The notes under the pieces are model-generated. The model made no database searches and was not told where the DNA came from. It saw only the letters and a list, made by a program, of their open reading frames with translations. Positions 10,428-31,244 of a DNA stretch of 31,244 nucleotides are shown here, piece after piece (position 1 is the stretch's first letter; every line of letters starts with the position of its first letter). A program made the translations under genes and the position numbers. Source of the DNA: an uncultured virus (IMG/VR IMGVR_UViG_3300037459_000123) (lineage: Duplodnaviria > Heunggongvirae > Uroviricota > Caudoviricetes); the IMG/VR virus record IMGVR_UViG_3300037459_000123. One strand, written 5' to 3'.

Positions 10428-10807
10428 CAGAGCGAATGCTAGGCCGCCTGTGCGTCGGCGTGATGGTCGTGGCGATGTTCGCCATCGGATGCAACACCCT
10501 CAAGGACATCGGCCGGACGATCAACGATGCGGCCAGCATCATGTGCGAACTGTTCGCGCTGGAGCAGGGTGAGGAGGCTCTCGGCATGTCGGCTGGGGAG
10601 TGGTGCAACGTCCACGACAACCTCAAGCCGTTCATCGACGAGGCACTTGCAGCGCAGCGTGCGGCCGGAGCGATGAGCATGGGCAGGATCAACGCCACAT
10701 CGGGCGGCGAGGACCCGGAGCCACCGTCAGACGGAGACGGTAAGGCGCCGGAATCGGTGCCCGACGACAACCCCGAGCCAGCGGCCGAGGCCGAAAGCGA
10801 GGACTGA
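10424..10807 (+). CDS. Lipoprotein with acidic Pro-rich tail
   Basis: ATGA overlap. MTERMLGRLCVGVMVVAMFAIG-C signal and lipobox. 'GCNTLKDIG' is reminiscent of entericidin-type lipoprotein starts. Confidence 0.65.
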   Translation: MTERMLGRLCVGVMVVAMFAIGCNTLKDIGRTINDAASIMCELFALEQGEEALGMSAGEWCNVHDNLKPFIDEALAAQRAAGAMSMGRINATSGGEDPEPPSDGDGKAPESVPDDNPEPAAEAESED

Positions 10808-16381: not shown

Positions 16382-16551
16382 TGGCCGCGAATAATAGGAT
16401 GTTGGTGACCTGCACGATTTATACAACCCCCGAGCAACTGGAGCGTCTCAAGCTGCTGGCGGCCCGCCGTAAAGTTTCGGTCACGTCGCTGGTACGCGAC
16501 GGCATCGATTTGGTGCTGGCCAACCCGCCGGACTGGGGCTCGCGCGGATGA
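16381..16551 (+). CDS. Ribbon-helix-helix DNA-binding protein
   Basis: 'VTCTIYTTPEQLERLKLLAARRKVSVTSLVRDGIDLVL' shows the RHH pattern. Start at the TGATG overlap. Confidence 0.85.
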   Translation: MAANNRMLVTCTIYTTPEQLERLKLLAARRKVSVTSLVRDGIDLVLANPPDWGSRG

Positions 16552-18113
16552 CCGTCGACATCATCGTGGACAACCGTCTGCGACTGCCAAAGGACGCGTT
16601 GCCCAAGAAGGCACTGACAGCGCTGCGCAAGGCGTTCACGCATTCCAATCCGGAGTTCTACAAAAAGCGCGCGATGAAAAAGCCGACGTGGAACGTCGAC
16701 CGTGAAATCAAGACGTGGGCGAGTTCCCAGGACCGCGCCGGTACGTGGTGGATCACGCTGCCTCGTGGTGGGACATCAACGGTGCGCGACGTGCTGTTGG
16801 AGCACGGGCTCGAATGGGAGTTTGTCGACAAGCGGAGCACGGGGCGCGGCGAGTTCGGCTACACGGGCGACTGGGTCACGCCTCAGTTGTTCCCGCCGCA
16901 CAATCTCGACTTGTGGGACCATCAGCAACGCATCGTGGACGCGGTGCTCAAGTGGGAGAACTGCATCATCCGTTCGCCGACGGCGTCCGGTAAAACGTCA
17001 GCGTTGCTCGCCGCCATCGTCGAGTGCAACGTCCCCGCGCTCGTGGTGATGCATGACAAGAAGCTGATCAAGCAGTGGCGCGAGCGCATCGTGGACGAGT
17101 TGGGCATTCCGTTGGAGCAAATCGGAATGATTGGCGGCGGCAAGTACAACCTCAAGCCGATTACGCTCGCGATGCAGCAGACGTTATGGAAGCTGTCGGA
17201 CACCAAGTGGGAGGAGATCAACGAGACGTTCGGATTCTTCGGCATCGACGAGTGCCACGGCACCGCGGCGCGCACGTTTCTCGTGGCCGGTGACAAGTCC
17301 ACTGCCAAGTATCGCGTTGGGGTGTCCGACGACGAGCGCCGCCACGACGGCAAGGAGTTTCTGAACTACGACATTTTCGGGCGCGTGGCTGTCGACATCA
17401 CCGACGAGGAGTTGGTGGACAAGGGCCATATCCTGGACGTCGCGGTGCGGTTGGTGCCGACCGAGTACGAGGACGCCGCGTACATGGACGAGGAGGGCGC
17501 TCACGAGTTCAACGACCTGCTCGACGGCATGATCGCGGATAAGGACCGCAACGACGTGATCCGATCCGTGGTGGAGATGTGCATGCGTAGCACTGAGCCC
17601 ACGCTGGTATTCAGCCACCGCCGGGAGCACTGCTCGATTCTGGATATGATCTTCACCGGAGACGGTCACCCGAGCGGCCTGCTCATCGGGGGCCCCGAGT
17701 ACAGCGAGACGTTCGACGCAACCAAGGACGGGCTGGCGTCCGGCGACAAGTTGATCGGTGTGGGTACGTATCGCGCGACGGGCACGGGGCAGGACATGCC
17801 CACGGTGACGTGCGGGGTGGCGACGACTCCGATACACGGCAACAAGCAGTTTCTTCGGCAGGTGAAGGGGAGACTGCGGCGTAAGCCGGACGGCAAAACC
17901 AAGGCCACGCTCTATGTCATCTGGGATCGGAAGATCTACGGGCGCGAGGCGGTGATGCATTTGAAACGAAAGGTGGCGGACTGCAAGGTTCTCCACGATG
18001 GGAAATGGGTCCCGGTCAAGGCGTACCTGGAGGAGCACTATGGCGAGCAGATCAGACGAGAGCGCACCACGAAAAAAACGCCGTTCGCGACGGCGGAAGA
18101 TCTCCGAGGATGA
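16548..18113 (+). CDS. SF2 DExH helicase (ResIII/UvsW-like)
   Basis: Q motif 'LWDHQQ', Walker A 'SPTASGKT', 'IDECH', motif V 'GTGQDMP', motif VI 'QVKGRLRR'. Confidence 0.9.
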   Translation: MTVDIIVDNRLRLPKDALPKKALTALRKAFTHSNPEFYKKRAMKKPTWNVDREIKTWASSQDRAGTWWITLPRGGTSTVRDVLLEHGLEWEFVDKRSTGRGEFGYTGDWVTPQLFPPHNLDLWDHQQRIVDAVLKWENCIIRSPTASGKTSALLAAIVECNVPALVVMHDKKLIKQWRERIVDELGIPLEQIGMIGGGKYNLKPITLAMQQTLWKLSDTKWEEINETFGFFGIDECHGTAARTFLVAGDKSTAKYRVGVSDDERRHDGKEFLNYDIFGRVAVDITDEELVDKGHILDVAVRLVPTEYEDAAYMDEEGAHEFNDLLDGMIADKDRNDVIRSVVEMCMRSTEPTLVFSHRREHCSILDMIFTGDGHPSGLLIGGPEYSETFDATKDGLASGDKLIGVGTYRATGTGQDMPTVTCGVATTPIHGNKQFLRQVKGRLRRKPDGKTKATLYVIWDRKIYGREAVMHLKRKVADCKVLHDGKWVPVKAYLEEHYGEQIRRERTTKKTPFATAEDLRG

Positions 18114-18390: not shown

Positions 18391-18887
18391 TGGGCCGCCG
18401 AGTCATCAAGCTGCCGTCCACCGCGGCGCAGCAGTTGGCGCTCGGGCTCGACCCGCAACCGGGGCGGTCGAAACCCAAACCCAAGAAGCGCAACCCGGGG
18501 ACGCCGTTCGAGATCAAGCGAGCTATCCAGGACATCGAGCGACGGGTGGAGGAGGAGGACTGGGAAAAAATGCGCCCTGGAATGTTGGTTGCTCTGTTCG
18601 CGTGGTGTCACGAGAAAACCTATGGAGTAGCCCCGGCTGATCTCAAGGGTCAGTCCTGGCGCAATGCGCAACGGTGCGCGGGGATGATGGTCAAAAAGGA
18701 CTTTGGTGGGGACATCGACAAGGCGCTGGAGTTTTTGCGCTGGACGTGGCAGCGCGAGCGACGCATCGAGCAGTGGAGGCGCGACAACAACCAGCACGGC
18801 AAGGTGATCGGCTGGTACGATCAGTTTCAGCGCGGTGAACTCCTGACCAAGTACCGCGTTGATGTCGCGCGCGGTCAGGATGGCTGA
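18390..18887 (+). CDS. Hypothetical protein (replication cluster)
   Basis: TGATG overlaps on both sides. Confidence 0.65.
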   Translation: MGRRVIKLPSTAAQQLALGLDPQPGRSKPKPKKRNPGTPFEIKRAIQDIERRVEEEDWEKMRPGMLVALFAWCHEKTYGVAPADLKGQSWRNAQRCAGMMVKKDFGGDIDKALEFLRWTWQRERRIEQWRRDNNQHGKVIGWYDQFQRGELLTKYRVDVARGQDG

Positions 18888-19702
18888 TGGGCCGTTGTGT
18901 CATCCGAGCAGAGGGTGCGTTTTATAACGAGCTCGATCCGTATGCTTCCAGGTGGTTGTCGAGACTAATTGCGGCTGGGCATATTGTAGGAGGTCCCGTT
19001 GAGGCGTGTGATATCAAGGAACTTGCAGCGGACTCGATCCGGGATGCGATCCAGTTCCACGCTTTTGCAGGCGTCGGAGTCTGGTCATACGCGCTCAGAC
19101 TCGCCGGGTGGCCAGATGATGTCCCGGTCTGGACGGGGAGTTGTCCGTGCCAACCTTTCAGCCAAGCCGGGAAACGAAAAGGTGCAGATGATGCGCGCCA
19201 CCTCTGGCCAGAATGGTATCGGCTCATTGCTGAGTGCCGACCTCCAACGATCTTTGGAGAGCAGGTTGCGAGCCCAGATGGAAGGTTGTGGCTCGATGCT
19301 GTATCGCTTGACTTGGAAGCATTGGGGTATGCCGTCGGGGCGGCGGATCTGTGCGCTGCGGGGGAGGGCGCGCCTCACATCCGGCAACGACTTTTCTGGG
19401 TGGCCTACTCCGATAGTCAACGACATGCTCGGGAGCGGCTACTGCTACGGCCCGGAGAAGAAGGACGGCAGTCGACCGAAGTTCCTGAAGTTGCCAGGCG
19501 CCGTGAAGCTCGTCACGGGAGGGGACCATGGGGTGATGTTGAGTGGCTCCAATGTTCAGACGGAAAAATCCGGCCAACTCAACCCGGCCTTTTCCCGCTG
19601 GCTCATGGGGCTACTTCCCGAGTGGGACGATTGCGCGCCTACGGGAACGCGATTGTTCCCCAAGTAGCGGCGACATTCATCCGAGCAGTGATGGATCTTT
19701 GA
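18887..19702 (+). CDS. C5 cytosine DNA methyltransferase, large (alpha) subunit, M.EcoHK31I-like
   Basis: Motif I 'FAGVG', IV 'GSCPCQPFS', VI 'GEQV', VIII '[10 protein letters not shown]', X '[14 protein letters not shown]'. No motif IX in this frame. Confidence 0.9.
18999..19667 (+). CDS. Nested +1-frame ORF: putative beta subunit of the methyltransferase (start uncertain)
   Basis: 222-codon frame entirely inside the MTase gene. It carries 'GWPTP' and motif-IX-like '[18 protein letters not shown]'. Confidence 0.7.
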
Positions 19703-21162
19703 TGGGCCGACGCCAGGTTGACGACGACGATGAGGACGAGGTCTCCGTTACGGAGATCCCCCACGACGTAGTCAACGAGCAAATTGTGATCGCGGCCGCG
19801 CTGACGTGCAAGAAGCGCGCGCGCAAGGATCTGATCTCGACGGTGCCAATTGATCTATTTGTCGATCCCCAACACATCGACATCTGGACTGGGCTCAAGG
19901 AGATTGCCCGTCGTAAGCTCAAGTTCGACATGGCGGCGTTGCTGCATCAACTCGGGTCCGAGTTCGATCAGGAGTACCTCACCGAGTTGGTGGAGAGTCA
20001 CCCCAAGCCACCGGCCAACCTGGCGCACCACGTCGCGAGCCTGCGGTGGGACAAGGCGCGTAGCGAGACGGTCAAGGGTCCGCTCACTGACCTCCTCCGA
20101 TCGCTCCAGGATCCGACGACCCCGCAGGAGAAAATCACGGCGCTGTCGAGGTCGGTGACGGCTTCGCTGAGCGTCTCCACGGACAAGCGATTCATGCGGG
20201 ACCCGACTGCGCTGGCGCGCGAGCACACGACGGCGATGCGTAAGCGTAAGAAGCAAGCGATCTATCCGTTCGGGATTCCCGACTTGGACATGGATGATGA
20301 CGGCAACCACCGGATGATGCCGGGCATTGCTCCCAACTACGTCACGGTCGTCACGGGAGTCCCGGGCTCTGCCAAGTCGGTCATCACGGCGCGGATCGTG
20401 TTGGCGCAGGCGCGCGCCAAGCGGAAGGTGCTTTATGGGGCGTGGGAGATGGGCGCAGGGCCCACGATCGAAATGCTCGCGTTGATGAGTCTCACAGACG
20501 AGGATCCGACCTGGACTCGCTACAAGACCTCGACCGGTCGAATCAAGGATGACCAGTTCGAGATGTTCGAGCAGCGGATGGAGGACATCGGGGCCTACGT
20601 CAAGTTTTTCGACCCTCCGTTCAAGTCGGCCCCGACCAAGCGAGACCATCGGGGGCAGGTCCGGCGCGCGACAAACGAGGAGTGTCTCGACATCCTGCAT
20701 CAACAGATCGCTGACTCGGGGTGTGAGGTATTTGCGGGCGACCTGTTCGAGCGCGCCATCAAGGACCGGCGACCTGATCAGGAGGCTGACGCGCTGTTCC
20801 GAATGCAGGACATTGCCAAGGAGACCCACACACATGTCTTGATGGTCGCCCAGCAGCGCCTCAAGGACATCGAGCAGCGCACCGACAAGCGACCCACCCG
20901 TGAGGGGATCAAGGGCTCCGGGGCCTGGGTAGAGGTCGCAGACACCATCATCGGGCTACACCGGCCCGCGCTCTGGAAATCGATGAATGACGACGTGATC
21001 GAAGTGCTGGTTCTCAAGCAGCGATTCGCGAAGTGGCCCTATCTGATTGAGTTCGACTGGGATGGCGACCGGGTCAGCATCAAGAACGGGCGAGAGGGCG
21101 AGTACGAGCATCCGGGCGCCGCGGATGAATCGCCCTTTGGGCGCATCGGCAAGAAGCGGTGA
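19702..21162 (+). CDS. dnaB: DnaB-like replicative helicase
   Basis: N-terminal 'PHDVVNEQIVI', Walker A 'GVPGSAKS', 'WEM', 'VAQ', 'KRPTREGIKGSGAWVEVADTIIGLHR', 'VLKQR'. Start at the TGATG overlap. Confidence 0.85.
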   Translation: MGRRQVDDDDEDEVSVTEIPHDVVNEQIVIAAALTCKKRARKDLISTVPIDLFVDPQHIDIWTGLKEIARRKLKFDMAALLHQLGSEFDQEYLTELVESHPKPPANLAHHVASLRWDKARSETVKGPLTDLLRSLQDPTTPQEKITALSRSVTASLSVSTDKRFMRDPTALAREHTTAMRKRKKQAIYPFGIPDLDMDDDGNHRMMPGIAPNYVTVVTGVPGSAKSVITARIVLAQARAKRKVLYGAWEMGAGPTIEMLALMSLTDEDPTWTRYKTSTGRIKDDQFEMFEQRMEDIGAYVKFFDPPFKSAPTKRDHRGQVRRATNEECLDILHQQIADSGCEVFAGDLFERAIKDRRPDQEADALFRMQDIAKETHTHVLMVAQQRLKDIEQRTDKRPTREGIKGSGAWVEVADTIIGLHRPALWKSMNDDVIEVLVLKQRFAKWPYLIEFDWDGDRVSIKNGREGEYEHPGAADESPFGRIGKKR

Positions 21163-21164
21163 GG

Positions 21165-21182
21165 TATCCTACATGTAGGATA
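21165..21182. promoter_or_regulatory. Perfect 18-bp palindrome TATCCTACATGTAGGATA
   Basis: Lies immediately after the dnaB stop, followed by a T5 run and the 21208 promoter. Either an operator or a hairpin. Confidence 0.45.
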
Positions 21183-21207
21183 AATCGACCTTTTTCTCCG
21201 ATAGGGC

Positions 21208-21236
21208 TTGCAACCGGCGCAAGCATGCGCTACCTT
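21208..21236 (+). promoter_or_regulatory. Class A promoter 1 with spacer palindrome (probably leaderless)
   Basis: TTGCAA-17bp-TACCTT, GCGCAAGCATGCGC at 21217-21230, ATG 21243 starts 7 nt after the -10. Confidence 0.75.
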
Positions 21237-21242
21237 TAGAAC

Positions 21243-21530
21243 ATGGCAACGACACACACCACCCAGAAGCTCACCAAGTCACAACACCGCAGTCTTGATC
21301 GCCTTGTCGAGATTGGTGGCGTCTTCATGATTACTAGGTCGGTCGGTCGGTCGCGTAACCCGCATTTGAGCGGCAGCCTGCGGACCCAGTACAGCCACAA
21401 GGGCCTGCACACGGTCTCGCTTGACGGGCTCGTGAAGCACGGTCTCGTGACCTACACGCGGGAAGGCGATTGGCAAAATCCAGGCGGCGAGGTCGACACC
21501 TACCGTCTCACCAACGGGGCGGAGCAATGA
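21243..21530 (+). CDS. Hypothetical protein, possibly winged helix
   Basis: Follows promoter A1. 'SLDGLVKHGLV...YRLT' is wHTH-like. Confidence 0.65.
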   Translation: MATTHTTQKLTKSQHRSLDRLVEIGGVFMITRSVGRSRNPHLSGSLRTQYSHKGLHTVSLDGLVKHGLVTYTREGDWQNPGGEVDTYRLTNGAEQ

Positions 21531-21727
21531 AGGGCCGACCGCTAGTCGAGACGCTGGGTGGGTTGGACGCGATGATGGTGGAATGCGCATGGTGTGGTGG
21601 AGAGCCCGACAAGGAATACCCAAACAGGCGCGGCGAGATATTCTGTTCCGCAAGCCACCGCTCATCGAGCAACCGTGCCCTAAAGAGGTTGCAGGCCAGG
21701 GAAACGGATGATGTCGACACCAATTGA
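21527..21727 (+). CDS. Small zinc-finger protein
   Basis: ATGA overlap, GGAG SD, 'CAWCG...FCSASH' (TRASH/treble-clef-like). Confidence 0.6.
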   Translation: MKGRPLVETLGGLDAMMVECAWCGGEPDKEYPNRRGEIFCSASHRSSSNRALKRLQARETDDVDTN

Positions 21728-21745
21728 AATTGAACCGACAGCACG

Positions 21746-22708
21746 GTGAACGTCGACACTCCCAGGCTGCTCAAGGCTCTCGGGATCCAGATCCCATCAG
21801 GGCACACCTATGGCGACCTCTGGGCCTCCTGCCCCTACCCAGACCACGAGGATGCTGACGCCTCCTGGCACATCGTCTCGAACCCGGACAGCCCCAAGAA
21901 CGGACACAACCACTGTTTTGGGTGCAAGCGCGAGGGCGGGGCTCTCTATCTCGTGATGGAGGTAGTGGGGTTCTCCGGTTACGGGGCGGCCCATGACTAC
22001 ATCGTCGACAAGGGGCTCGACCTGGAGGAGTCCGCCGCCCTGGCTGCTCAGATTGTGCTGATGAAGCGAGCCAAGCGACGCCCAGAACTACCCATCCCGA
22101 CCGGTGTGCGCCTCGGAGAGCCCCTGGGGCTGTGGTTGACACCTGCTAGGCGCTACGCCAAGCGCCGGGGCTTGACGCTCCTTCAGGTGGCCAAGTGGGG
22201 GCTGGGCTACGGCGTCGAGGGCGACCTCCTCGGGCGGCTGTACCTCCCGATCCACGACCGGTGGGAGCGGCTCATCAATTGGAATGCTCGGGCGTTCGCA
22301 GGTCAGGAGGCCAAGTACAAGAATCCGTATGCCAGCGAGGGCGCGGACATGGGTGCTGTGTTCGGTCAACGGTACTGGCCCCAAGACCCGTCCGAGGAGA
22401 CGGTGGTGCTCACCGAGGGCGAGTTGAATGCGTTGGCCTTCGAGCGCGTCGGCGCGAAGTACATCGGAGGTCTCGGAGGATCGGACATCCAGCCCAAGCA
22501 GTGGCTCCGAATCTCCAAGTTTGGCCGCGTCCTGATTGCGACTGACGGCGACATGGCTGGGTCAGTGGTGGCCGAGCAACTCCGCGTCGGGCTGGCTCGA
22601 TGGAGGCACGCGGAACGAATCATGTTTCCGCCCCGGCTCGACGCGTGCGATATTTACGACAGGTCCCCCGTCGAGTTGGAGGGCATGCTGATGGATGTCC
22701 ATGGTTAG
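21746..22708 (+). CDS. DNA primase (CHC2-like Zn finger plus TOPRIM)
   Basis: 'CPYPDHED...HCFGC', 'LTEGELNA', 'IATDGDMAG'. Confidence 0.88.
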   Translation: MNVDTPRLLKALGIQIPSGHTYGDLWASCPYPDHEDADASWHIVSNPDSPKNGHNHCFGCKREGGALYLVMEVVGFSGYGAAHDYIVDKGLDLEESAALAAQIVLMKRAKRRPELPIPTGVRLGEPLGLWLTPARRYAKRRGLTLLQVAKWGLGYGVEGDLLGRLYLPIHDRWERLINWNARAFAGQEAKYKNPYASEGADMGAVFGQRYWPQDPSEETVVLTEGELNALAFERVGAKYIGGLGGSDIQPKQWLRISKFGRVLIATDGDMAGSVVAEQLRVGLARWRHAERIMFPPRLDACDIYDRSPVELEGMLMDVHG

Positions 22709-22961
22709 GCCGCGAAAGGTGATTCAAGGGGAAGGTTCACGACGGCGCAAGGTTGCGCTGGCAATTGCGCGCTGTTGTGGTAACCTGTCTAGAACAGCAT
22801 ACGAACTCGGATTTTGCAGACGGCAGATTTACTACCTCGTGAATGACTATGGGCTATGGGACATCGTGAACAAAGCGCGCATTCGACACGTGGAAGAGCA
22901 GAGGATTGCTAAGCAACTCGGGAGGAAACGATGGCGTACAGGGACACAGACATCGGCCTAA
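22695..22961 (+). CDS. Stand-alone Fis-type HTH protein
   Basis: 'AIARCCGNLSRTAYELGFCRRQIYYLVNDYGL' matches the HTH_8/Fis consensus GNxxxAAxxLGIxRxxLY. Confidence 0.75.
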   Translation: MSMVRPRKVIQGEGSRRRKVALAIARCCGNLSRTAYELGFCRRQIYYLVNDYGLWDIVNKARIRHVEEQRIAKQLGRKRWRTGTQTSA

Positions 22962-23155
22962 CGATCAGGCTCGACCCCACCAAGGGGAAGCGTCAACTGC
23001 TCCGACTGTTCACGCGACACGAGGGAAATACCACGCACGTCGCCAAGGCGGTCGGCGTGGATGTCGCCACCGTCAAGCGGTGGATCGTCAAGTGCGGGAC
23101 AGAGTTCCGAGCCGAGATTGAAGCCCTCCGGCCGGAAAAAGTCGACGCGGCATAA
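22931..23155 (+). CDS. Stand-alone Fis-like HTH protein
   Basis: 'FTRHEGNTTHVAKAVGVDVATVKRWI', GGAGG SD. Confidence 0.75.
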   Translation: MAYRDTDIGLTIRLDPTKGKRQLLRLFTRHEGNTTHVAKAVGVDVATVKRWIVKCGTEFRAEIEALRPEKVDAA

Positions 23156-23183
23156 ATAATCGTCCTGGGTGATGTCAAATCAC

Positions 23184-23213
23184 TTGACGGGGAGCGCAAG
23201 CATGCGCTACCGT
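23184..23213 (+). promoter_or_regulatory. Class A promoter 2
   Basis: TTGACG-18bp-TACCGT, GCGCAAGCATGCGC at 23194-23207, AT-richer upstream sequence. Confidence 0.75.
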
Positions 23214-23227
23214 TAGGACATCAATAG

Positions 23228-23264
23228 CCGGGGATGGTTACCCCGGTGGGAAAGGAACCCGGAC
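23228..23264 (+). promoter_or_regulatory. Conserved 5' leader: hairpin plus AGGAACCCGGAC box
   Basis: CCGGGG-ATGGTTA-CCCCGG (23228-23246), then AGGAACCCGGAC (23253-23264) directly before the ATG. Confidence 0.6.
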
Positions 23265-24356
23265 ATGGCAGATTTGATCGACAAGGACGCACTCGGCGTC
23301 GAGGTAAGCTGGAGTTTCGGTTTCGGCGATGCTCAGGCGGTGACACTGCCGCGCGCGGACGTCGCCGAAGTGTTCGCGGCGGAAGGCTTCTACCATGCAC
23401 TGCCGGGGCTCGACCACGATGACGCGCTCAAGCGCGCGTCCCGCTACAGCAAGAAGTCCAAGACCAACATGGTCAAGGAACTCTCGAAGCCCAACAAGGA
23501 GACCGGCACGGTGCGCGTGTACGGCGTGTATCACCGGATCGGCGTGGAGGGGGAGACCGGCGATCGTTGGAAGATGTCGGCGCGCGTGCGTAGTGAGGGG
23601 CATCGGATTGTGGTGCTGCCGCCTGAGGGAGAAGCACAGTTCGTCGATCCTGAGACACATCAGATCGGCGCGCTGATGGCGGAGATGGCCAACAGTGTCC
23701 TGGACAACGTCATGAACGTGGATCTGTCGATGGCGCTGACGACCATCGGTGCGGACCTCGGCTGGGTGTCGCGGCGTCGGAACAGCGGCGGTGTGTACCT
23801 GATGTTGAGCGGCGAGGACACGGACACGGAGCGATTCGTGCGCGTGCTCAAGGGACTCGAAGCACTGACGGCGGAGTTGCCTCGGTGGGAACAGTTCATC
23901 CCCCAGATTCAGGAGGTCTACCCCAAGCCCCTCACGATGGACTCGTGGGCCGGTTCGACGGAGGACGCCTTTCAAGGTGAGATTGATCGGCTGGTCAAGG
24001 AACTCGGCCGCATGCAGGCGGACGGCAACATGCGGGACAAGACCATCGAGGCGCGCGCGGACGAGTGTGACGCCATCATGGCCAAGGCCGAGCGTTACCG
24101 CTCGTTTCTCAGCGGCAAGGTGGAGACCATCGCCGCCAGCCTCTCGGATCTGCGCGACAAGTTCAGGCACGGGTTGGACGAGGAGGTCGCCAAGATCGGC
24201 GGTGCCCTGGCCGACATGGACGCCACGAGCAAGGCGGCCGATGCCAAGGAGCAGGCCAAACTCAAGACGGCCCCCTCCAAGCCCCGCAAGCGACGCGGGC
24301 GGCGGGTCATCGCTCCGGCGGCTACTGACCTGGGTATGGAGGAGTTCGACCTCTGA
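23265..24356 (+). CDS. DUF6744/DUF3150-like protein
   Basis: 'LGVEVSWSF...LP...DDALKRA' and 'RRNSGGVYLM' recall the DUF6744 pattern (from memory, not searched). Helical C-terminus. Confidence 0.6.
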   Translation: MADLIDKDALGVEVSWSFGFGDAQAVTLPRADVAEVFAAEGFYHALPGLDHDDALKRASRYSKKSKTNMVKELSKPNKETGTVRVYGVYHRIGVEGETGDRWKMSARVRSEGHRIVVLPPEGEAQFVDPETHQIGALMAEMANSVLDNVMNVDLSMALTTIGADLGWVSRRRNSGGVYLMLSGEDTDTERFVRVLKGLEALTAELPRWEQFIPQIQEVYPKPLTMDSWAGSTEDAFQGEIDRLVKELGRMQADGNMRDKTIEARADECDAIMAKAERYRSFLSGKVETIAASLSDLRDKFRHGLDEEVAKIGGALADMDATSKAADAKEQAKLKTAPSKPRKRRGRRVIAPAATDLGMEEFDL

Positions 24357-24380
24357 GGCCCCAGGAGCCCCGGGAGAGTA

Positions 24381-24415
24381 CCCCCCAGGTTTTTTGACTT
24401 GGGGGGAGTTTTTCT
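24381..24415 (+). terminator. Intrinsic terminator
   Basis: CCCCCCAGGT-TTTTTG-ACTTGGGGGG stem-loop followed by AGTTTTTCT, between the stop at 24356 and promoter A3. Confidence 0.65.
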
Positions 24416-24426
24416 GTCCAATACTC

Positions 24427-24455
24427 TTGCACCCGGCGCAAGCATGCGCTACCGT
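24427..24455 (+). promoter_or_regulatory. Class A promoter 3
   Basis: TTGCAC-17bp-TACCGT, GCGCAAGCATGCGC at 24436-24449. Leader hairpin GGCCG-AGATGGTTAC-CGGCC (24465-24484), AGGAACCCG at 24493. Confidence 0.75.
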
Positions 24456-24505
24456 AGGGAGCATGGCCGAGATGGTTACCGGCCCCGAACCAAGGAACCC
24501 GAAAA

Positions 24506-25714
24506 ATGGCACGAAAAATCAAGGCGGATGAGACCGAGGCGCAGGACGGGGAGACCACCCGCGCGGCGTTGCAGGACATCGTCACTCAACTCAACGACAC
24601 GTTCATCGCTCGTGCGGATGCGATCCGGGCGATGATGCTGGCGTACCTGAGCGCGGAGCACTACCTGCTGGTCGGAGAGCCCGGCGTGGCCAAGACCGCG
24701 CTGGCGGTGTGCTTCGCTGGTCATCTGCGGGAGGCCTCATTTTTCAAGACCACGTTCGGGAGTTTCACACCCCCGGAGGCGGTGTTCGGCCCCATGTCGA
24801 TCAACAAGTTCAAGCAGGGTCAGTACAAGACCGAGACCGCCGGGATGCTACCCGAGGCGGATCACGGGTTTCTGGACGAGTACCTCAAGGCGTCGGACGG
24901 GCTCGTGAACTCGCTGTTGACGATCAACAACGAACGGGAGTTTGAGGGGAAGAAAACCCCGCTGATGACTCTCGGGATGGCCACCAACTGGCCGGAGATG
25001 CTCTCGCGCTCGGACAACATCGCGGCGCTTTACGATCGTACCCTGCTGCGTGTGGTCGTCGAGGACGTCGAGGCGGAGGACGACGTTGCTGATGTGCTGG
25101 AAAAGATCGAGGCGGTCGACGCTTACAGCCCGCGTTCGACGATCACCCTGGCGGACCTGAAGGCAGCACAGGAGGAGGTCAAGGCGGTGGAGATCAGCCG
25201 CGACATTCGCAAGCTGATGGCCAACGTGCGCAAGCGTCTCGGGCCCCAGGAGTTGCCAGGTGGTGACATCAAGGAGGGTGTGCAAATCAGCAGCCGGAGG
25301 CTCGGCAAGTTGCAGCGCGTGCTCAAGGCCAACGCCTGGATGAACGGTCGGGACGAGGTCACCGTCGAGGACTTCGAGGTTCTGCAATGGGGGCTGTGGT
25401 CGGACCAGTCGGACATCGAAAAGGTACACGCGGTGCTCGGCACTGTTGATCAGGAGGCCAAGCAGGAGGTCGTCAAGCTGATCGACACTGGTCGAACGGC
25501 GTATCAGGATTTGGCCCGCGCTGGGTTTGGTACGGCTCGGATGAACGCCACCATGGCAAAGATCGGCAAGGTCGCGGCGGAGGCGGCAGAGCTTTACAAT
25601 CGCCCGATTTTCACCGCGCGGGGCCGGGACGAGATCAAACAGGCCATGGAGGGGCTCAAGCAGGATTTCAAGGCCATCAAGATCAAGGTGGAGGAGGCCA
25701 AGCAGCATGGCTAG
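24506..25714 (+). CDS. MoxR-family AAA+ ATPase, RavA-like
   Basis: 'EHYLLVGEPGVAKT', 'FTPPEAVFGP', 'GMLPEA..FLDEYLKAS...LVNSLLTINNER', 'ALYDR', 'ISSRR'. Confidence 0.9.
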   Translation: MARKIKADETEAQDGETTRAALQDIVTQLNDTFIARADAIRAMMLAYLSAEHYLLVGEPGVAKTALAVCFAGHLREASFFKTTFGSFTPPEAVFGPMSINKFKQGQYKTETAGMLPEADHGFLDEYLKASDGLVNSLLTINNEREFEGKKTPLMTLGMATNWPEMLSRSDNIAALYDRTLLRVVVEDVEAEDDVADVLEKIEAVDAYSPRSTITLADLKAAQEEVKAVEISRDIRKLMANVRKRLGPQELPGGDIKEGVQISSRRLGKLQRVLKANAWMNGRDEVTVEDFEVLQWGLWSDQSDIEKVHAVLGTVDQEAKQEVVKLIDTGRTAYQDLARAGFGTARMNATMAKIGKVAAEAAELYNRPIFTARGRDEIKQAMEGLKQDFKAIKIKVEEAKQHG

Positions 25715-25756
25715 AGGGTTCCCTGGGGCTGGTCTGAAAAAGATCGGCTTCGGGGG

Positions 25757-25786
25757 TTGCACTCTGGCGCAACCTTGCGCTATAAC
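25757..25786 (+). promoter_or_regulatory. Class A promoter 4
   Basis: TTGCAC-18bp-TATAAC, GCGCAACCTTGCGC at 25767-25780. Leader hairpin CCGG-GTGGTAA-CCGG, AGGAACCCGGAC at 25828-25839. Confidence 0.75.
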
Positions 25787-25840
25787 AAATCACAGGCCCC
25801 GGGTGGTAACCGGAGGCGAGACAAAAAAGGAACCCGGACC

Positions 25841-27133
25841 ATGCACGATTACAAACGAACCTTTGCCACCCGCGTTCTGTCATTCGAGGACGCACTCGCG
25901 GTCAACGGGATGATGGGCGACGGTCTCAGGGTCCTGGAGGCCCGCCACCCCGGCAAGGCACGTGATGCCGGGCGTGACATTTGGGCCGGTCTCGTGGGCT
26001 TGCAGGGCACGGGGGGCCCTGTTGAGACGGCTGTCACGATGACCACCCCGGCCGACAATGTGCCGCTGCTACGGCGGGCGGACAGTGTTGCGGCGGCGTT
26101 CGCGTTTCGGTCGGCCTGCGAGCACTTCGCGGACGTCAGCCTGGCCGACGGATTTGCACTGCGCGGCGCAATGGAAAAGGCCTGGCTTGATTTCGAGCAA
26201 CGGCGGCTGGAGGCCAACGCGATCGAGGGAGGCTTCGGCTGCGACGATTCGCCAAGCTGGCACACGTTGCGAGACATCGGCACATCGCCCGGGAGCGCGG
26301 CGTTCAAGAAAAAGATACTGGAGATCGCCAAGCTGGCCGGGCGGATCTTCAAGGCGATGGGCCACATGAAAAAGCGTGCGCCTGCAAACGATCCGCATTC
26401 GGTCAAGGGTATCGACATCGGCGGCCAGGTGGAGCGTCTTACGTCGTCGGAACTCGGCAAGCTGGCGACGCCCGAGACCGAGGATCAGACCGGGATGCGG
26501 GTGCTGAAAAAGCAGGCCATGCAACGGAAGATGGTCAGCGTTCAGGAGAAATCGCGCGGCCCGCTCGTGGTGGTTGTCGACGAGTCCGAGAGCATGCACG
26601 AGGAGTTTGCAGGCGTGCGCGGCCGCAACACTTGGGCCAAGGCCGTCATGATTGCGCTCACACGGATCGCCTGGAATGAGGATCGCACCGTGCGCGTGGT
26701 TCATTTCGGAAACGGCGTGGTCACCCAGGATGTGCCCAAGAATGATCACCGCGCGCTGTTCGAGGCGGCGCGGAGCTTCTTGTCAGGAGGTACTGATTTT
26801 GTCGGGTCGCTGGAGCAGGGCATGCGCTCGGTTGGCGACCTCGAAAAAGAGGGACACAAGGGGGCCGATATCGTGTACATCACGGACGGTGAGGAATGGG
26901 GCGGCTTTCGCCGCAACGGCTTGCGCGCCGAACTGGACAAGATCATCGACCGCATGGACGATGACGGCGTGAAGTTGTGGGACGTGGCCATCGGCCAGCA
27001 CCATGACGCCGGATTCCCACTGCGGAAGCGCGCTGAGCGGTACACGTTCGCGCACGATCGGGATCTCAAAAATATCGACCGCGCGGCGCAGGTGGCCAAG
27101 GGCCTGTCAGACGCGGCCAAGATCGAGGCATAG
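25841..27133 (+). CDS. vWA-domain protein, ViaA-like
   Basis: MIDAS 'VDESESM', 'GGTDF', 'ITDGE'. Start at ATG 25841 after the leader box, since the ORF track's TTG at 25757 is the -35 box. Confidence 0.88.
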   Translation: MHDYKRTFATRVLSFEDALAVNGMMGDGLRVLEARHPGKARDAGRDIWAGLVGLQGTGGPVETAVTMTTPADNVPLLRRADSVAAAFAFRSACEHFADVSLADGFALRGAMEKAWLDFEQRRLEANAIEGGFGCDDSPSWHTLRDIGTSPGSAAFKKKILEIAKLAGRIFKAMGHMKKRAPANDPHSVKGIDIGGQVERLTSSELGKLATPETEDQTGMRVLKKQAMQRKMVSVQEKSRGPLVVVVDESESMHEEFAGVRGRNTWAKAVMIALTRIAWNEDRTVRVVHFGNGVVTQDVPKNDHRALFEAARSFLSGGTDFVGSLEQGMRSVGDLEKEGHKGADIVYITDGEEWGGFRRNGLRAELDKIIDRMDDDGVKLWDVAIGQHHDAGFPLRKRAERYTFAHDRDLKNIDRAAQVAKGLSDAAKIEA

Positions 27134-27150
27134 GACACAGCACCCCCCGC

Positions 27151-27170
27151 AGAGGTAAACATGTTTACTC
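27151..27170. promoter_or_regulatory. 20-bp site with palindromic core GTAAACATGTTTAC, copy 2
   Basis: AGAGGTAAACATGTTTACTC, in the gap before the sigma factor gene. Inverted exact copy of 12502-12521. Confidence 0.55.
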
Positions 27171-27198
27171 GGGCTGGGGAGCACAGGGGAGCGAGACA

Positions 27199-27810
27199 AT
27201 GGAAACGGAACTGATGTCACTGAGGGATGGCGCGTGTACGTTCGAGCAGTTCGAGCGCTCGACGCGGCGTAGTTGGCAACGGCTGGCCGGGAAACTCGCG
27301 AGCCGCTGGCGGATGCCGCCGTCGATGGACGAGCAGGATTTGACCCAGGAGATGTTGATCGCGGTGATCGAACTGGTTGCCTCATGGGACCCTGATCGCA
27401 AGGTCAAGATCAGTGCCTACGTGGTTTGGAATGCGATGAACCGTGCGAAGCTGTTTCTACATGAACAGCGTGGCGCGAATCTGCACCGGCCGGACAAAAG
27501 TAAGAGCCGTCACCCGCTGGTAGAGTGTGGGCTGCTTGGCCCTGATGTCACCCAGAGCCCGCTCGATCGTGCGGTGTCGCCACCCGATCAACTCAATGCG
27601 ATGGGAGTGCTCGACGCCATGCGCGCGGTACGCACTGAGCGGGACCTCACGATCATGGAGGCACTCGTGGCGGCGCCAAGTATCGACCTGGCGGCCACCA
27701 CGTTGTACGAGGACGCCATCACCCGAGAGCAGATGCAATACGGCAGCCCCAAGGAGGCCCGTCGTTCAGTCATGCGTGCTGCGCGCCGTTTCGCGGAGCG
27801 CTGCGCCTAA
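27199..27810 (+). CDS. Sigma70-like RNA polymerase sigma factor
   Basis: Region 2 'LAGKLASRW...DEQDLTQEMLIAVIELVASWDPDRKVKISAYVVWNAMN'. Divergent region-4-like C-terminus. Confidence 0.8.
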   Translation: METELMSLRDGACTFEQFERSTRRSWQRLAGKLASRWRMPPSMDEQDLTQEMLIAVIELVASWDPDRKVKISAYVVWNAMNRAKLFLHEQRGANLHRPDKSKSRHPLVECGLLGPDVTQSPLDRAVSPPDQLNAMGVLDAMRAVRTERDLTIMEALVAAPSIDLAATTLYEDAITREQMQYGSPKEARRSVMRAARRFAERCA

Positions 27811-27838
27811 CAATCAAACCAGATAGGAACCCGGACCA

Positions 27839-29098
27839 ATGAGCGACAAGCAATCGATCGATATGAATCTCGTGGACGCGGACGTCGTCGAGAAATACCT
27901 CGCCGAGTACGAACTGGAGATGGTCCAGAGCGATGTCGAGAACGTCAAAACACTCACGGATTACTTTGCCGAGAGGGGTAAGTCCGAGGGCATCACCCTG
28001 GCACAGTGCGACTGCGGTGGGACGTCCGACGCCGAGTTGGAGGAGTGTCCGTTCTGCGGTGACTCCGAGCCGGTCGACGGTTTGACCGAGGAGGACGAGG
28101 ACGACGACAGCGAGGAGACCGCCGAGTCCGACGCCGATGCCGATGACGAGGAGGAAGACGACGAGGACGATGACGATGAGCCCGAGGCGGCCGCCGAGTC
28201 CGAGGACGAGGACGACGAGGAGGAGGAAGACGAGGACGACGAGGAGGAGGACGACCCGGAGCCGACCCCTGCTCCCAAGAAAAAGGCCAAGGGCAAGAAG
28301 GCCAAGAAGGCGGCCAAGAAGGTGACTAAGGCCACGGCGGACAAGAAGGCCGCCAAGAAAAAGAAGCAGCCCAAGGACGCCAAGAAGACCAAGAAGGGCA
28401 AGCCAGCCAAGAAGGAAAAGGGTCCGCTCGAAGATCAGGAGGCGACCCCGTCGAGCGCGCGCAAACCCGGCGAGACGTCCACGGACATCGTGGTGTTCAC
28501 GACGGCGGACCTCGACGAGCAGGTCAAGGTGATCAAGTCGACCGGGAAGTTTGCCGCGACCGAACTGCTCAAGATGGGCAGCGCGTTCGATCGCATCCAC
28601 ACGGACGAGTTGTGGAAGCTGCGCACCGTCAAGGGCAAGCCGAAATATACGAACTTCAAGAAGTTCGTCGCGGAGGAGTTCGGCGTCTCGCACACCTACG
28701 CCTACGGGCTGATGGACGTTGCCAGGAAGTTCACGGAGGACGACGTCAAGCGGCTCGGGATCTCCAAGTTGCGCGTGGCGCTCCAGGTACCGGCCGAGCG
28801 TCAAAAGGAGATTCTCGACGCGGCCAAGAAGGGCGCAACGGTCGCCGACCTCAAGGACAAGGCGCGCAAGGATCGCCCCGAGGCCAAGAAGGCGATCACG
28901 GTTGCGTTGTTGTTGGGACAGCAGGTTGTCCCGGCATTCAAGCGCACTGATCCCGACGTGCGCGCATCGAAGATCAAGGACGATGCGTTCGGAGAACTCG
29001 AACTGGACAACGGCGTCACGCTCTCGATCAAGTTGACGAGGGATGTGGACAGCAACCTTCAGTTCGTTGTCGAGGCCAAGCGCGGAGCGGCGGAGTAG
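27839..29098 (+). CDS. Multi-domain protein: Zn ribbon, long acidic tract, Lys/Ala-rich H1-like tract, DUF3102-like helical domain
   Basis: 'CDCG...CPFCG', ~55-residue D/E-rich run, 'KKKAKGKKAKKAAKK' repeats, 'FKKFVAEEFGVSHTYAYGLM'. AGGAACCCGGAC box at 27825-27836. Confidence 0.8.
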   Translation: MSDKQSIDMNLVDADVVEKYLAEYELEMVQSDVENVKTLTDYFAERGKSEGITLAQCDCGGTSDAELEECPFCGDSEPVDGLTEEDEDDDSEETAESDADADDEEEDDEDDDDEPEAAAESEDEDDEEEEDEDDEEEDDPEPTPAPKKKAKGKKAKKAAKKVTKATADKKAAKKKKQPKDAKKTKKGKPAKKEKGPLEDQEATPSSARKPGETSTDIVVFTTADLDEQVKVIKSTGKFAATELLKMGSAFDRIHTDELWKLRTVKGKPKYTNFKKFVAEEFGVSHTYAYGLMDVARKFTEDDVKRLGISKLRVALQVPAERQKEILDAAKKGATVADLKDKARKDRPEAKKAITVALLLGQQVVPAFKRTDPDVRASKIKDDAFGELELDNGVTLSIKLTRDVDSNLQFVVEAKRGAAE

Positions 29099-29103
29099 TA
29101 GAT

Positions 29104-29313
29104 GTGCCCTCTAAGAAGCGGTCCCGGCGGGCCGTGAACATGCGCCGCTCACTACACGAGCAGGAGGAGGCGGCGCAAAAACACCTGGACAAATGGATGA
29201 ACGACCTCTATCGGGCGATTGGAAAAGTCAGCTACTACCAACGCGTGCTCAAGCATGTCCGGCGACGGATCGCAGAGCAGGAGACAGAGGTAGAGTTTCC
29301 TAAGCTGGACTGA
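29104..29313 (+). CDS. Hypothetical protein
   Basis: GGAG SD, TGATG coupling to the polymerase gene. Confidence 0.55.
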   Translation: MPSKKRSRRAVNMRRSLHEQEEAAQKHLDKWMNDLYRAIGKVSYYQRVLKHVRRRIAEQETEVEFPKLD

Positions 29314-31244
29314 TGTCGCGGCGGTTGAAACGCAGTCAGGTTCGGCGGACTGCTCGGTCGGCTCACCGGGTTCCGCGCGCAAGCGTCCGGTCGCCTAACC
29401 AGCGGCACGGGTTGGCCGGGCGGTCCTCCGAACCTGATCGCGTACTCAATGCATTTTGGGGTCGCGACCTTCTTACCTACGTCGTCAGGGATGACGAGCG
29501 ACCTGGCGGCGTGAGGTTGAGGACGACCAAGGCGGAGCATTCGTGTTTCGTTTTGGCCGACGCCATCGATCAGGAGTACGCCTCGAAGTTGCAACACAAG
29601 CCTGGTGTTCGTTGGGTCAGGCGGGAGGGTGACTGGTATCGAATTGGGTTTCGTCAGCGCGAGATCTGTCAGGCGTTCTGCAAGGCAGCCAAGGAGGACG
29701 GCGTCCCGACGTTCGAGGGGATGATCAGCCCAGTAGTACGGTGGATGTCCGACCATAGGATCAAGGTTGAGGTTCCGCGCATCGCATACGTGGACCTGGA
29801 GACCGACTCCCGCGTGGTTATCTCCAAGACCATCGAGGGGCATGCGCGGATCCTGTCGTGGGCGGTGGTCGGTTCGGACGGGCGCGAGTTCGAGGGATGT
29901 CTCCGCTCAGACACCGACAAGGCGGAGCGGAACCTGCTCATCGAACTGTGGAAGGTGTTTGACGAGTACGATCTCATCGCTGCGTGGAATGGCGACCGGT
30001 TCGACTTCGCGGTCATCAAGGCGCGCTCGCAACTTCATCGACTGCTCGGTGGTGGACGTCGAGAGTGGAGGCGGTGGCTGTGGCTCGATCACCTGGAGTT
30101 GTTTCGCAAGATGAACACGATGGCGGCCGAGTCCGGGGACGAGAAACAGTCAATGGCCCTGGCTAACATCGCGGCCGTGCTCGGAGTTGGTGCGAAGCTG
30201 GATTTCGATTCGTCCAAAACGTGGGAGTCCTGGCTGGCAGGAGGCAAGGAACGCAGGAGACTCCGGCGGTACAACATGCAGGACGCGCGGCTGATGCCGC
30301 TCATCGAGGACAAGACCGGTTACATCATGCTGCTCCAGACCATCGGGCAGGTGTGCGGGACGTTCGCCGACAGCCGCGGGTTCAACCCGAGCGTCCAGGT
30401 TGAGGGATTCCTGCAACGGCTGGCGGTGTCGCGTGGTCATCGGTTCCCGACCAAGCACCGTGACAAAAAGGACAGCGAAAAGTTTGCAGGTGCGTTCGTC
30501 TTGCACCCGACACGGAAGGGCATCATCCGGGATGTTCACGTTGCCGACTTCAGTGGGCTGTACCCGAACATCATCCGCACTTGGAACATGTCCCCGGAGA
30601 CGACCGACTGTGAAATGGACGAGGGGGACATCGCTGTCTGTCCGTTGACTGAAACCAAGTTCAACACGTCGACCCCTGGACTGCTCGCGGTGGCGGTCAC
30701 TCGGATGATGAAGCTGCGCAAGAAGTGGAACAAGAAAAAGGCGGCCGCGTCCCCGGGTACTGACGAGTGGCGGGACGCCGATCGGATGACGACTGCGTAC
30801 AAGATCGCAACCAACTCCTTTTATGGTGTCATCGGTCAGAGCGTCTCGCGGTTTTTCAAACGTACGGTGGCGGAGGGTGTCGCGCAGAACGGAGCGTGGC
30901 TGATCCAGGAGACGATCAAGGCGGCGGAGGAGCGGGGGATGTCCGTGATCTACGGCGACACGGATTCACTGTTCGTCGCAGGCGCGACCAAGCGCGAGTT
31001 CGAGGAGTTCGTTGCGTGGTGCAACTCCGATCTGTACCCGGGCATGGTTGAGCACGTCGGTTGCAAGGAGAACCACATCGACCTCGCCTATGAAAAGCAG
31101 TTCGATCGGCTCGTGATGACGACGGCCAAGCGGTACATCGGGTGTTACAAACACTACAAGGGCACCAAGGCGACGGCCGACAGCAAGCCGGAGATCAAGG
31201 GGTTGGAGTACAAGCGCGGTGACAGCGTCCGGTTCGCGCGTCAG
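29313..31244 (+). CDS. polB: Family B DNA polymerase, 3'-truncated by the window (absent from the ORF track)
   Basis: Frame 3 from ATG 29313 reads ExoI 'YVDLETD', ExoII 'AWNGDRFDF', ExoIII 'YNMQD', motif A 'DFSGLYPNII', motif B 'YKIATNSFYG', motif C 'YGDTDS', 'KGLEYKRGD'. Confidence 0.93.
   Translation, partial: MSRRLKRSQVRRTARSAHRVPRASVRSPNQRHGLAGRSSEPDRVLNAFWGRDLLTYVVRDDERPGGVRLRTTKAEHSCFVLADAIDQEYASKLQHKPGVRWVRREGDWYRIGFRQREICQAFCKAAKEDGVPTFEGMISPVVRWMSDHRIKVEVPRIAYVDLETDSRVVISKTIEGHARILSWAVVGSDGREFEGCLRSDTDKAERNLLIELWKVFDEYDLIAAWNGDRFDFAVIKARSQLHRLLGGGRREWRRWLWLDHLELFRKMNTMAAESGDEKQSMALANIAAVLGVGAKLDFDSSKTWESWLAGGKERRRLRRYNMQDARLMPLIEDKTGYIMLLQTIGQVCGTFADSRGFNPSVQVEGFLQRLAVSRGHRFPTKHRDKKDSEKFAGAFVLHPTRKGIIRDVHVADFSGLYPNIIRTWNMSPETTDCEMDEGDIAVCPLTETKFNTSTPGLLAVAVTRMMKLRKKWNKKKAAASPGTDEWRDADRMTTAYKIATNSFYGVIGQSVSRFFKRTVAEGVAQNGAWLIQETIKAAEERGMSVIYGDTDSLFVAGATKREFEEFVAWCNSDLYPGMVEHVGCKENHIDLAYEKQFDRLVMTTAKRYIGCYKHYKGTKATADSKPEIKGLEYKRGDSVRFARQ

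Follow-up and report, generated by a model that had tools for sequence, protein, structure and literature searches.

The window analysed here is a stretch of 31,244 nucleotides (nt) of an uncultured virus (IMG/VR record IMGVR_UViG_3300037459_000123; Caudoviricetes). It is a phage-like genome piece in which all genes lie on the + strand. Between positions 23,184 and 27,133, three consecutive genes, here called g1, g2 and g3, encode a protein related to the DUF6744 family, a MoxR-type AAA+ ATPase and a protein with a von Willebrand factor A (vWA) domain. Each of them is preceded by its own copy of a cassette that comprises a -35/-10 pair placed around a GCGCAA..TGCGC palindrome, a TGGTWACC hairpin and the ribosome site AAGGAACCC (Table 1).

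Table 1. The three genes g1-g3, their control cassettes and other features of the window. aa, amino acids; HTH, helix-turn-helix.
Feature	Position	Strand	Remarks
g1, DUF6744-like, 363 aa	23265..24356	+	
g2, MoxR-type AAA+ ATPase, 402 aa	24506..25714	+	
g3, vWA protein, 430 aa	25841..27133	+	
g1 cassette	23184..23264	+	-35 TTGACG; palindrome 23194-23207; -10 TACCGT 23208-23213
g1 leader	23252-23264 (ribosome site)	+	hairpin CCGGGG-ATGGTTA-CCCCGG; ribosome site AAGGAACCCGGAC
Intrinsic terminator after g1	24381..24416	+	11-bp stem and T run; z -2.3
g2 cassette	24427..24505	+	-35 TTGCAC; palindrome 24436-24449; -10 TACCGT
g2 leader		+	hairpin GGCCG-AGATGGTTAC-CGGCC; ribosome site-like AAGGAACCCGAAA
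g3 cassette	25757..25840	+	-35 TTGCAC; palindrome GCGCAACCTTGCGC 25767-25780; -10 TATAAC
g3 leader	25827-25839 (ribosome site)	+	hairpin with GTGGTAACC; ribosome site AAGGAACCCGGAC
Cassette copy before orf95	21208..21242	+	-35 TTGCAA; palindrome GCGCAAGCATGCGC 21217-21230; -10 TACCTT 21231-21236; no leader
Cassette-like copy inside hth1	22745..22785	+	palindrome GCGCAAGGTTGCGC 22745-22758; GTGGTAACC 22777-22785
Tail fibre, tailspike, head and peptidase genes	first 13 kb of window	+	
Helicase	16548-18113	+	
DNA methyltransferase	18887-19702	+	
DnaB	19543-21162	+	
orf95	ATG 21243	+	between DnaB and primase
Primase	21746-22708	+	
hth1, small HTH protein	22695..22961	+	Fis-type HTH_8, E 5e-4; kept in relatives
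hth2, small HTH protein	22931..23155	+	HTH_28, E 1.2e-3; kept in relatives
Phage sigma-70-family factor (region 2)	27199..27810	+	directly after the vWA gene in relatives too
g5, 419-aa zinc-ribbon/acidic/basic protein	27839-29098	+	between sigma factor and PolB
Family B DNA polymerase (PolB)	after g5	+	

By its profile matches g2 is a MoxR-class AAA+ ATPase. The best Pfam match was to bpMoxR (135.8 bits, 1.4e-39; cut-off 27), accompanied by AAA_5 (51 bits) and the RavA-type lid AAA_lid_8 (49.5 bits). The protein also matched phrog_19600, annotated as “ATPase” (3.5e-56), and Walker A (GEPGVAKT) and Walker B (FLDE) motifs are present in the translation. Matches to g2 at E <= 1e-5 were found in 19 phage records. 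Its closest solved relative is E. coli RavA (E 1.9e-31), with residues 28-309 of g2 aligned to 17-296 of RavA. The NCBIfam equivalog model for RavA (NF010054) was matched at 2.8e-41, with 142 bits against a cut-off of 681, and the match covers profile positions 16-301 of 498, so that no LARA or C-terminal part is matched in g2. The C-terminus of g2 gave nothing usable against Pfam at E <= 1.

The vWA domain of g3 was recognised by VWA_2 (35.4 bits, cut-off 27; E 1.8e-8) in a match that runs to residue 390 of 430. The residues of the metal ion-dependent adhesion site (MIDAS), D247, S249, S251, T318 and D349, were read in the translation and are invariant in 50 aligned relatives; the site is intact. 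The ViaA equivalog model (NF008230) matched the vWA part only (4e-16; 59.3 bits against a cut-off of 500). The terms RavA-like and ViaA-like, used in the preliminary description of this DNA, are therefore apt as a statement of resemblance, but both proteins fall far below the scores that would place them in those families. Residues 1-230 of g3 are conserved and belong to no known family, and this N-terminus had no usable Pfam match at E <= 1. Beyond the vWA domain, Pfam detected no other domain and no C-terminal effector domain. No longer, fused relative was seen among 7999 candidates scored, which is weak evidence. The start codon of g3 is most likely the ATG at 25841, since relatives align from residue 1-7 of this form. 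The TTG at 25757 is the less likely start: it is the -35 hexamer, and the relatives fit the ATG form.

The product of g1 starts with an alpha/beta domain (1-220), in which RRxxGGVY is invariant. A three-helix bundle (222-333) comes next, and a disordered, basic linker leads to a C-terminal tail that is acidic. AlphaFold models were confident, with a predicted local distance difference test score of 83.6 for the whole protein and 88.7 for the N-domain. Against the Pfam model of DUF6744 (PF20529) g1 scored only 12.9 bits (E 0.053) over its C-terminal 67 residues, without reaching the gathering cut-off of 27 bits. Of the 27 members of the g1 lineage, nine matched PF20529 at E <= 0.1, the best at 1.3e-6. 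When the family profile (27 sequences) was compared with eight true DUF6744 proteins using hhalign, however, the probability was 97.7% (E 1.8e-12, 269 columns), and the SGGVYF motif was aligned. A hidden Markov model of the lineage also matched a Moorella DUF6744 protein (7.5e-5) and an Alicyclobacillus protein (6.3e-4), and the Atlas feature and structure neighbours of g1 are DUF6744 clusters. The label DUF6744-like is thus upheld by profile-profile comparison, by which g1 is a distant relative of the family. A search of 1.84 billion representatives with the g1 profile returned 306 clusters at E <= 1e-3, and four predicted viral protein structures match g1, including one of halovirus HVTV-1. 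In the phage collection g1 had no tblastn match, no relative of its family was found in IMG/VR and the genome collection, and its profile gave nothing below E 0.02 against the sequences of solved structures. A WGR-like N-terminus was rejected, as it had no support.

Most members of the g1 lineage, as well as the Pseudanabaena protein, end in a tail of the form [ST]x[DE][DE]LF that follows a K/R/P-rich linker; this tail is absent from the DUF6744 proteins of Bacillota and Actinomycetota. Whether the tail might serve for docking, be it to the MIDAS site, to a clamp or to some other hub, is a matter of speculation. Positions 12-47 of the g1 profile also matched fourteen times within a 2143-aa repeat protein, P0213 (E 5e-16), the repeat being '...EVSWSVGGADAASFEIS...'. 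This repeat looks extracellular, and the VEVSWSFG motif seems to be common to it and g1 by chance or through distant kinship.

Outside the lineage, tblastn with the Moorella DUF6744 protein found 2 phages and 21 plasmid records. Ten DUF6744-bearing replicons were examined, namely three viruses (one haloarchaeal) and seven plasmids from three phyla; the plasmids were taken as one per genus for 7 genera, i.e. 7 of the 21 records. An AAA+/vWA pair was present on the same replicon in all ten, and in seven it was adjacent to DUF6744, with at most three small genes between. These seven are Moorella phage MTATph1 and plasmids of Brevibacillus, Streptomyces, Nocardia, Pseudanabaena, Alicyclobacillus and Rubrobacter. 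In MTATph1 a true DUF6744 gene (CDS0119; 5.6e-61) is followed, after three small genes, by genes for a bpMoxR ATPase (CDS0115) and a vWA protein (CDS0114). The order is DUF6744-AAA-vWA in the plasmids of Brevibacillus, Alicyclobacillus and Pseudanabaena, and AAA-vWA-DUF6744 in those of Streptomyces, Nocardia and Rubrobacter. The preliminary description had made its proposal depend on the first gene being conserved next to AAA/vWA pairs elsewhere, and this is what was found in unrelated phages and plasmids. Among 50,697 phage records, a g3-like vWA protein is encoded by 4 (from 3 phages) and DUF6744 by 3 (from 2 phages), both of the latter phages being among the 3 with the vWA protein. DnaN, SSB, a CHC2 primase, SNF2/DEAD helicases and a DUF6094 methyltransferase are the recurrent company of the trio's relatives.

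The near-identity of the cassettes, put forward in the preliminary description, is borne out by counts of their parts. The 20-mer GCGCAAGCATGCGCTACCGT occurs exactly at 23194 and 24436 and with one mismatch at 21217, giving 3 matches in the window as compared with 0 in 100 shuffles. The palindrome in the g1 and g2 spacers is GCGCAAGCATGCGC, while g3 has the variant GCGCAACCTTGCGC at 25767, of which a mirror form lies at 22745. RTGGTWACC occurs exactly four times in 31 kb (22777, 23234, 24472 and 25803) against 0.29 expected, and every copy is 32-40 nt downstream of a palindrome. The 13-mer of the ribosome site, AAGGAACCCGGAC, is exact at 23252 and 25827, has one mismatch at 27824 and two at 24492; one more match with two mismatches lies inside g1. 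The -35 hexamers (TTGACG, TTGCAC, TTGCAA) are spaced 17-18 nt from the -10 hexamers (TACCGT, TACCTT, TATAAC), and a TTGMMN-17/18 nt-TAYMNT geometry was read at 4 sites. The terminator described after the first gene was likewise found, and no comparable one was seen after g2. Per-gene cassettes and a terminator fit a layout of three co-regulated transcription units, as had been proposed.

The cassette is not exclusive to the trio, however. It does stand before all three genes, but with the copies before orf95 and inside hth1 there are five in the window. As it also serves orf95 and the primase block, the cassette would mark a regulon that is wider than the trio. The small HTH protein hth1 is a candidate for binding the palindrome and hth2 is a candidate regulator, while the sigma-70-family factor is a candidate reader of the cassette promoters. 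At orf95 the -10 hexamer TACCTT ends 6 nt before the ATG, whereas the leaders of g1-g3 are 50 nt; the orf95 mRNA is therefore a candidate for being leaderless or nearly so. A sixth exact match to GCGCAA-N3-TGCGC, GCGCAACGGTGCGC (18666-18679), lies inside a coding region, has neither -35/-10 hexamers nor TGGTWACC, and is probably due to chance. Perfect palindromes were also seen just past the dnaB stop (ATCCTACATGTAGGAT, 21166-21181) and just past the g3 stop (GTAAACATGTTTAC, 27155-27168), and three related loci from metagenomes (L004, L005, L006) have GTAACCCGCGGGTTAC immediately after g1 and g2. These may be terminator or 3'-end hairpins lacking T runs, or protein sites.

Relatives of g1 are encoded by 12 metagenome loci, at 40-50% protein identity. 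The AAA gene follows g1 in all 8 loci that have at least ~300 nt downstream, the other four ending within or just past g1, and the vWA gene follows the AAA gene in 7 of the 7 loci with enough flank. In all related loci long enough to show it, the order DnaB-primase-HTH-HTH-g1-AAA-vWA-sigma-g5-PolB is kept. One repeated cassette before all three genes is also present in L005, L006/L007 and L010, where its sequences are unrelated to that of the window. There are three copies of ~120 nt in L006/L007, three of 142 nt in L010 (99% and 82% identity), and two long copies plus three short ones in L005; in L009 a repeat of 46 nt occurs twice, ahead of g1 and of g2. In the window, L004, L005, L006 and L011, a GAAAGG-type ribosome site is preceded at 5-12 nt by a hairpin, and the stems differ (CCGGGG/CCCCGG, GGCCG/CGGCC, GTCGGG/CCCGAC, CCGGGT/ACCCGG and CGGGG/CCCCG). 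Since some intergenic gaps in L009 and L011 are just 12-27 nt, separate promoters appear to be common and not universal. The window, L009, L010 and L012 have in common GCGCAA followed 6-8 nt later by TAnnnT, which hints that GCGCAA might act in promoter specificity, perhaps towards the phage sigma factor, no less than as an operator. In L010 the copies lie at 7856-7997, 9122-9263 and 10470-10611. Those before g1 and g2 are 99% identical and reach into the coding sequence, both proteins starting with MEKTTNN, which suggests recent copying or gene conversion between the cassettes.

We suggest that g1-g3 encode the parts of one remodelling machine of mobile elements, a MoxR-vWA pair joined by DUF6744 as a third subunit, and that this machine acts on DNA-linked targets; the probability that we assign to this reading is roughly 0.55. 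In such a complex g2 would be a hexameric MoxR-type AAA+ motor, g3 a vWA/MIDAS adaptor, and g1 a third subunit that either gives specificity or is the client. By analogy with RavA-ViaA, NorQ-NorD, CbbQ-CbbO and CobS-CobT-CobN, an acidic residue on a partner would be held by the MIDAS site of g3, and the g2 motor would use ATP hydrolysis to remodel or release that partner. The target would most likely be a DNA-bound or replisome-linked complex, because the trio lies in the phage replication block (here helicase, methyltransferase, DnaB, primase, sigma factor and PolB) and its plasmid relatives lie beside DnaN, SSB, primase and SNF2/DEAD helicases. Host takeover, one of two roles offered in the preliminary description, is less favoured than DNA-linked work because the constant neighbours are replication and DNA-handling genes. 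Each gene would be transcribed as a separate unit, with a promoter, 5' hairpin and ribosome site that match those of the other two, and such units might lead to parallel expression under joint control, probably at a high level and along with the orf95-primase block. Complex prediction for one pair, g3 with g1, gave scores of 0.17 and 0.02 against a mark of 0.32, a result that weighs neither way on binding.

Several observations weigh against a three-part machine or against the control ascribed to it. In three of the ten replicons DUF6744 and the AAA/vWA pair are 11-45 kb apart, so adjacency is not obligatory. In Bacillus phage 0305phi8-36 the DUF6744 gene (ORF046) is 11 kb from gp66/gp63. In HVTV-1, DUF6744 is gene 25 (3e-19) and an AAA_5 ATPase gene and a vWA gene are 15-18 kb away, with no detectable sign that these two are of the same subtype. 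In the Subdoligranulum plasmid the distance is 42 kb; the neighbours of DUF6744 there are a primase, Rad52 and an SMC-like ATPase, with no AAA/vWA nearby. Conversely, the 9.6-kb fragment MT836594 has AAA/vWA genes among clamp, SSB and helicase genes and no DUF6744 within its length. Within the lineage the adjacency of g1-g3 carries little weight alone, because the whole replication block is syntenic. Nor does g1 have a recognisable DNA-binding or enzymatic fold among solved structures: Foldseek gave no match in the PDB at E <= 1e-3 for the whole model or the N-domain. With VIA-wide the whole model matched only generic three-helix bundles, the best being the BAG domain 4hwh (Z 12.0, root-mean-square deviation 1.5 over 80 residues), which falls below the bar of ~13 for helical bundles, and the best score of the N-domain (Z 6.1; ferredoxin-like and Cas2-like rows) is below the tool's stated noise level. 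As to the cassettes, a scan of 19000-31244 with a simple sigma-70 consensus found 0 promoter-like sites; the -10 hexamers fail the rule of the scan, so it is from their geometry and placement that these sites are called promoters. In stability the leader hairpins do not exceed shuffled sequences (z -0.05 to -0.6). Among RNA runs, none was listed as containing this stretch.

The scattered replicons and MT836594 would suit a DUF6744 that is an independent replication or DNA-handling protein and merely shares a replication module with a two-part AAA+/vWA chaperone. We consider this very unlikely, as every one of the 10 replicons has all three genes. In 7 of them the genes are adjacent, in either of two orders, and this holds across three bacterial phyla although the remaining neighbours differ. 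The two families also coincide in the phage collection despite being very rare in it. A role in counter-defence, the other proposal of the preliminary description, seems unlikely but is a live rival. The machine would then disassemble or inactivate a host immune complex, or protect the incoming or replicating DNA of the element. Within the survey the module was seen on phages and plasmids only, DNA methyltransferases and SNF2/DEAD helicases, the typical company of anti-restriction genes, are nearby, and in Nocardia pNF1 the module is beside a conjugative coupling protein. In addition, a phage MoxR ATPase, bas54_0063, is described in a preprint as being needed against a predicted defence system, DS-28 (10.1101/2025.11.20.689424). 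However, the 19 phage records that match g2 do not include the Bas54 ATPase, which may thus be another MoxR subtype. The trio, moreover, is part of the conserved core of the replication block, with 40-50% protein identity across the lineage, and not of a variable accessory island. No family of PADLOC-DB 2.0 was matched by g1, g2, g3, the sigma factor or g5 at E <= 0.01, although this library consists of defence and not anti-defence proteins.

A chaperone of the NorQD, CobST or chelatase type that inserts a metal cofactor into a phage metalloenzyme appears highly improbable. Such a function would agree with accounts of MoxR/vWA pairs of known function, which often insert metals (PMC9976466, PMC13036017), and with the 2007 annotation of 0305phi8-36, where the AAA/vWA pair (orf66/orf63) was noted as the two subunits of a “MoxR-type metalloprotein chaperonin” (PMC2147016). 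A ribonucleotide reductase gene is also found 1 kb from the DUF6744 gene of MTATph1. Against this, genes for metalloenzymes are not among the constant neighbours, none is seen from DnaB to PolB in either the window or its relatives, and g1 has neither the size of nor a match to chelatase-like CobN/BchH proteins. A more specific form of the remodelling machine that we favour would be directed at the replisome and evict the host clamp, SSB partners or a DNA-bound blocker, letting the DnaB, primase and PolB of the element take over. DUF6744 would dock on DNA or a replication hub via its basic linker and acidic [ST]x[DE][DE]LF tail, which resembles beta-clamp-binding and SSB-tip peptides, and present this hub to the vWA MIDAS; the MoxR motor would strip or reload it, and the matched per-gene cassettes would set the subunit ratio. 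At this level of detail the proposal is rather unlikely to be correct.

Among known systems, E. coli RavA-ViaA resembles the trio in that g2 aligns to RavA with an AAA_lid_8, g3 aligns to the vWA part of ViaA, and the gene pair is adjacent, as are ravA and viaA. It differs in the low scores of g2 and g3 (142 vs 681 and 59 vs 500 bits) and in the unmatched LARA part; furthermore, the genes studied here are phage-borne, have a third conserved partner in DUF6744, and are found with replication genes as opposed to a respiration context. In CobS-CobT-CobN and BchI-BchD-BchH, a motor and a vWA adaptor work together with a third, substrate-holding subunit. The same three-part logic is proposed for the trio, but g1 (363 aa) is unlike the large CobN/BchH, and there is no tetrapyrrole or metal context.

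MoxR-vWA ternary conflict systems with VMAP, iSTAND, FtsH or beta-propeller proteins have been described by Kaur, Burroughs, Iyer and Aravind in 2020 (PMC7159879). They too combine a MoxR-vWA chaperone pair with a conserved third protein, and the bpMoxR model, which is the best for g2, was built from them. In the trio the third protein is DUF6744, and Pfam finds no VMAP, iSTAND, FtsH or beta-propeller domain in g1. As these systems are presented in that paper, their vWA protein carries variable C-terminal effectors, of which g3 has none, and their carriers are chromosomes of multicellular bacteria, whereas here they are phages and plasmids and PADLOC detects nothing. The cassettes can be compared with the PeSL promoter-stem-loop cassettes of T4-type phages, which are described as flanking variable genes and being linked to modular shuffling (PMC2839356, PMC4122927). 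Both are short composites of promoter and stem-loop repeated between genes of one phage. According to these accounts of PeSLs, the difference is that here three conserved core genes are flanked, and that the arrangement and not the sequence is kept in several lineages. A literature search, with supplements outside its scope, found no paper on a MoxR-vWA-DUF6744 trio, and no paper naming DUF6744 was found. New here are a divergent lineage of the trio module, the extra cassette copies that tie it to the orf95-primase block, a per-gene cassette arrangement that persists although its sequence changes, and an acidic tail specific to the lineage.

The surroundings of two of the distant DUF6744 genes were also recorded. 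On the Subdoligranulum plasmid (L022, 33-7972) DUF6744 closes a block that comprises a DUF6094 methyltransferase, Prok-E2_D, Rad52, an SMC/RecF-like ATPase and a CHC2 primase; this recombination/replication set may tell more about the role of DUF6744 itself. In HVTV-1 (L023, 9815-13096) gene 25 is two genes from gene 27, whose 438-aa product has several HTH and sigma-70 region 4-like matches, which recalls the HTH and sigma genes on either side of the trio in the window.

Elsewhere in the window, g5 encodes a zinc ribbon (CDCG...CPFCG), a run of ~70 residues that are nearly all D/E, a stretch rich in K and, at the C-terminus, a conserved domain that corresponds to phrog_15609/4571, to which no function is assigned there. 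In relatives the low-complexity part is swapped for other repeats and the position of g5 between sigma factor and PolB is kept. Neither orf95 nor parts of g5 gave anything usable against Pfam at E <= 1. In the tail region, an open reading frame of 545 aa (6710-8347) is built of 60-nt (20-aa) repeats with a higher-order repeat of 366-432 nt and has no PHROG match. No sliding clamp was found in the window or the lineage loci by tblastn with three plasmid/phage DnaN queries, a search that is weak for divergent clamps. Rfam returned no family for 21000-28000 at E <= 1, and the phage collection contained no DNA match to 21000-29500.

MoxR-vWA pairs are widespread, and their clients are known in few cases. 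A form restricted to phages and plasmids would establish a new class of protein remodelling encoded by mobile elements, and the one seen here has a constant third partner of no known fold and is located among replication genes. It ranges from plasmids of Bacillota, Actinomycetota and Cyanobacteriota to a haloarchaeal virus. Replication and counter-defence are both conceivable roles for it, and since Bacillus phage 0305phi8-36, Moorella phage MTATph1 and HVTV-1 are culturable carriers, this can be tested now. The per-gene cassette, for its part, represents a case of conserved regulatory architecture in uncultured phages, in which the sequence turns over.

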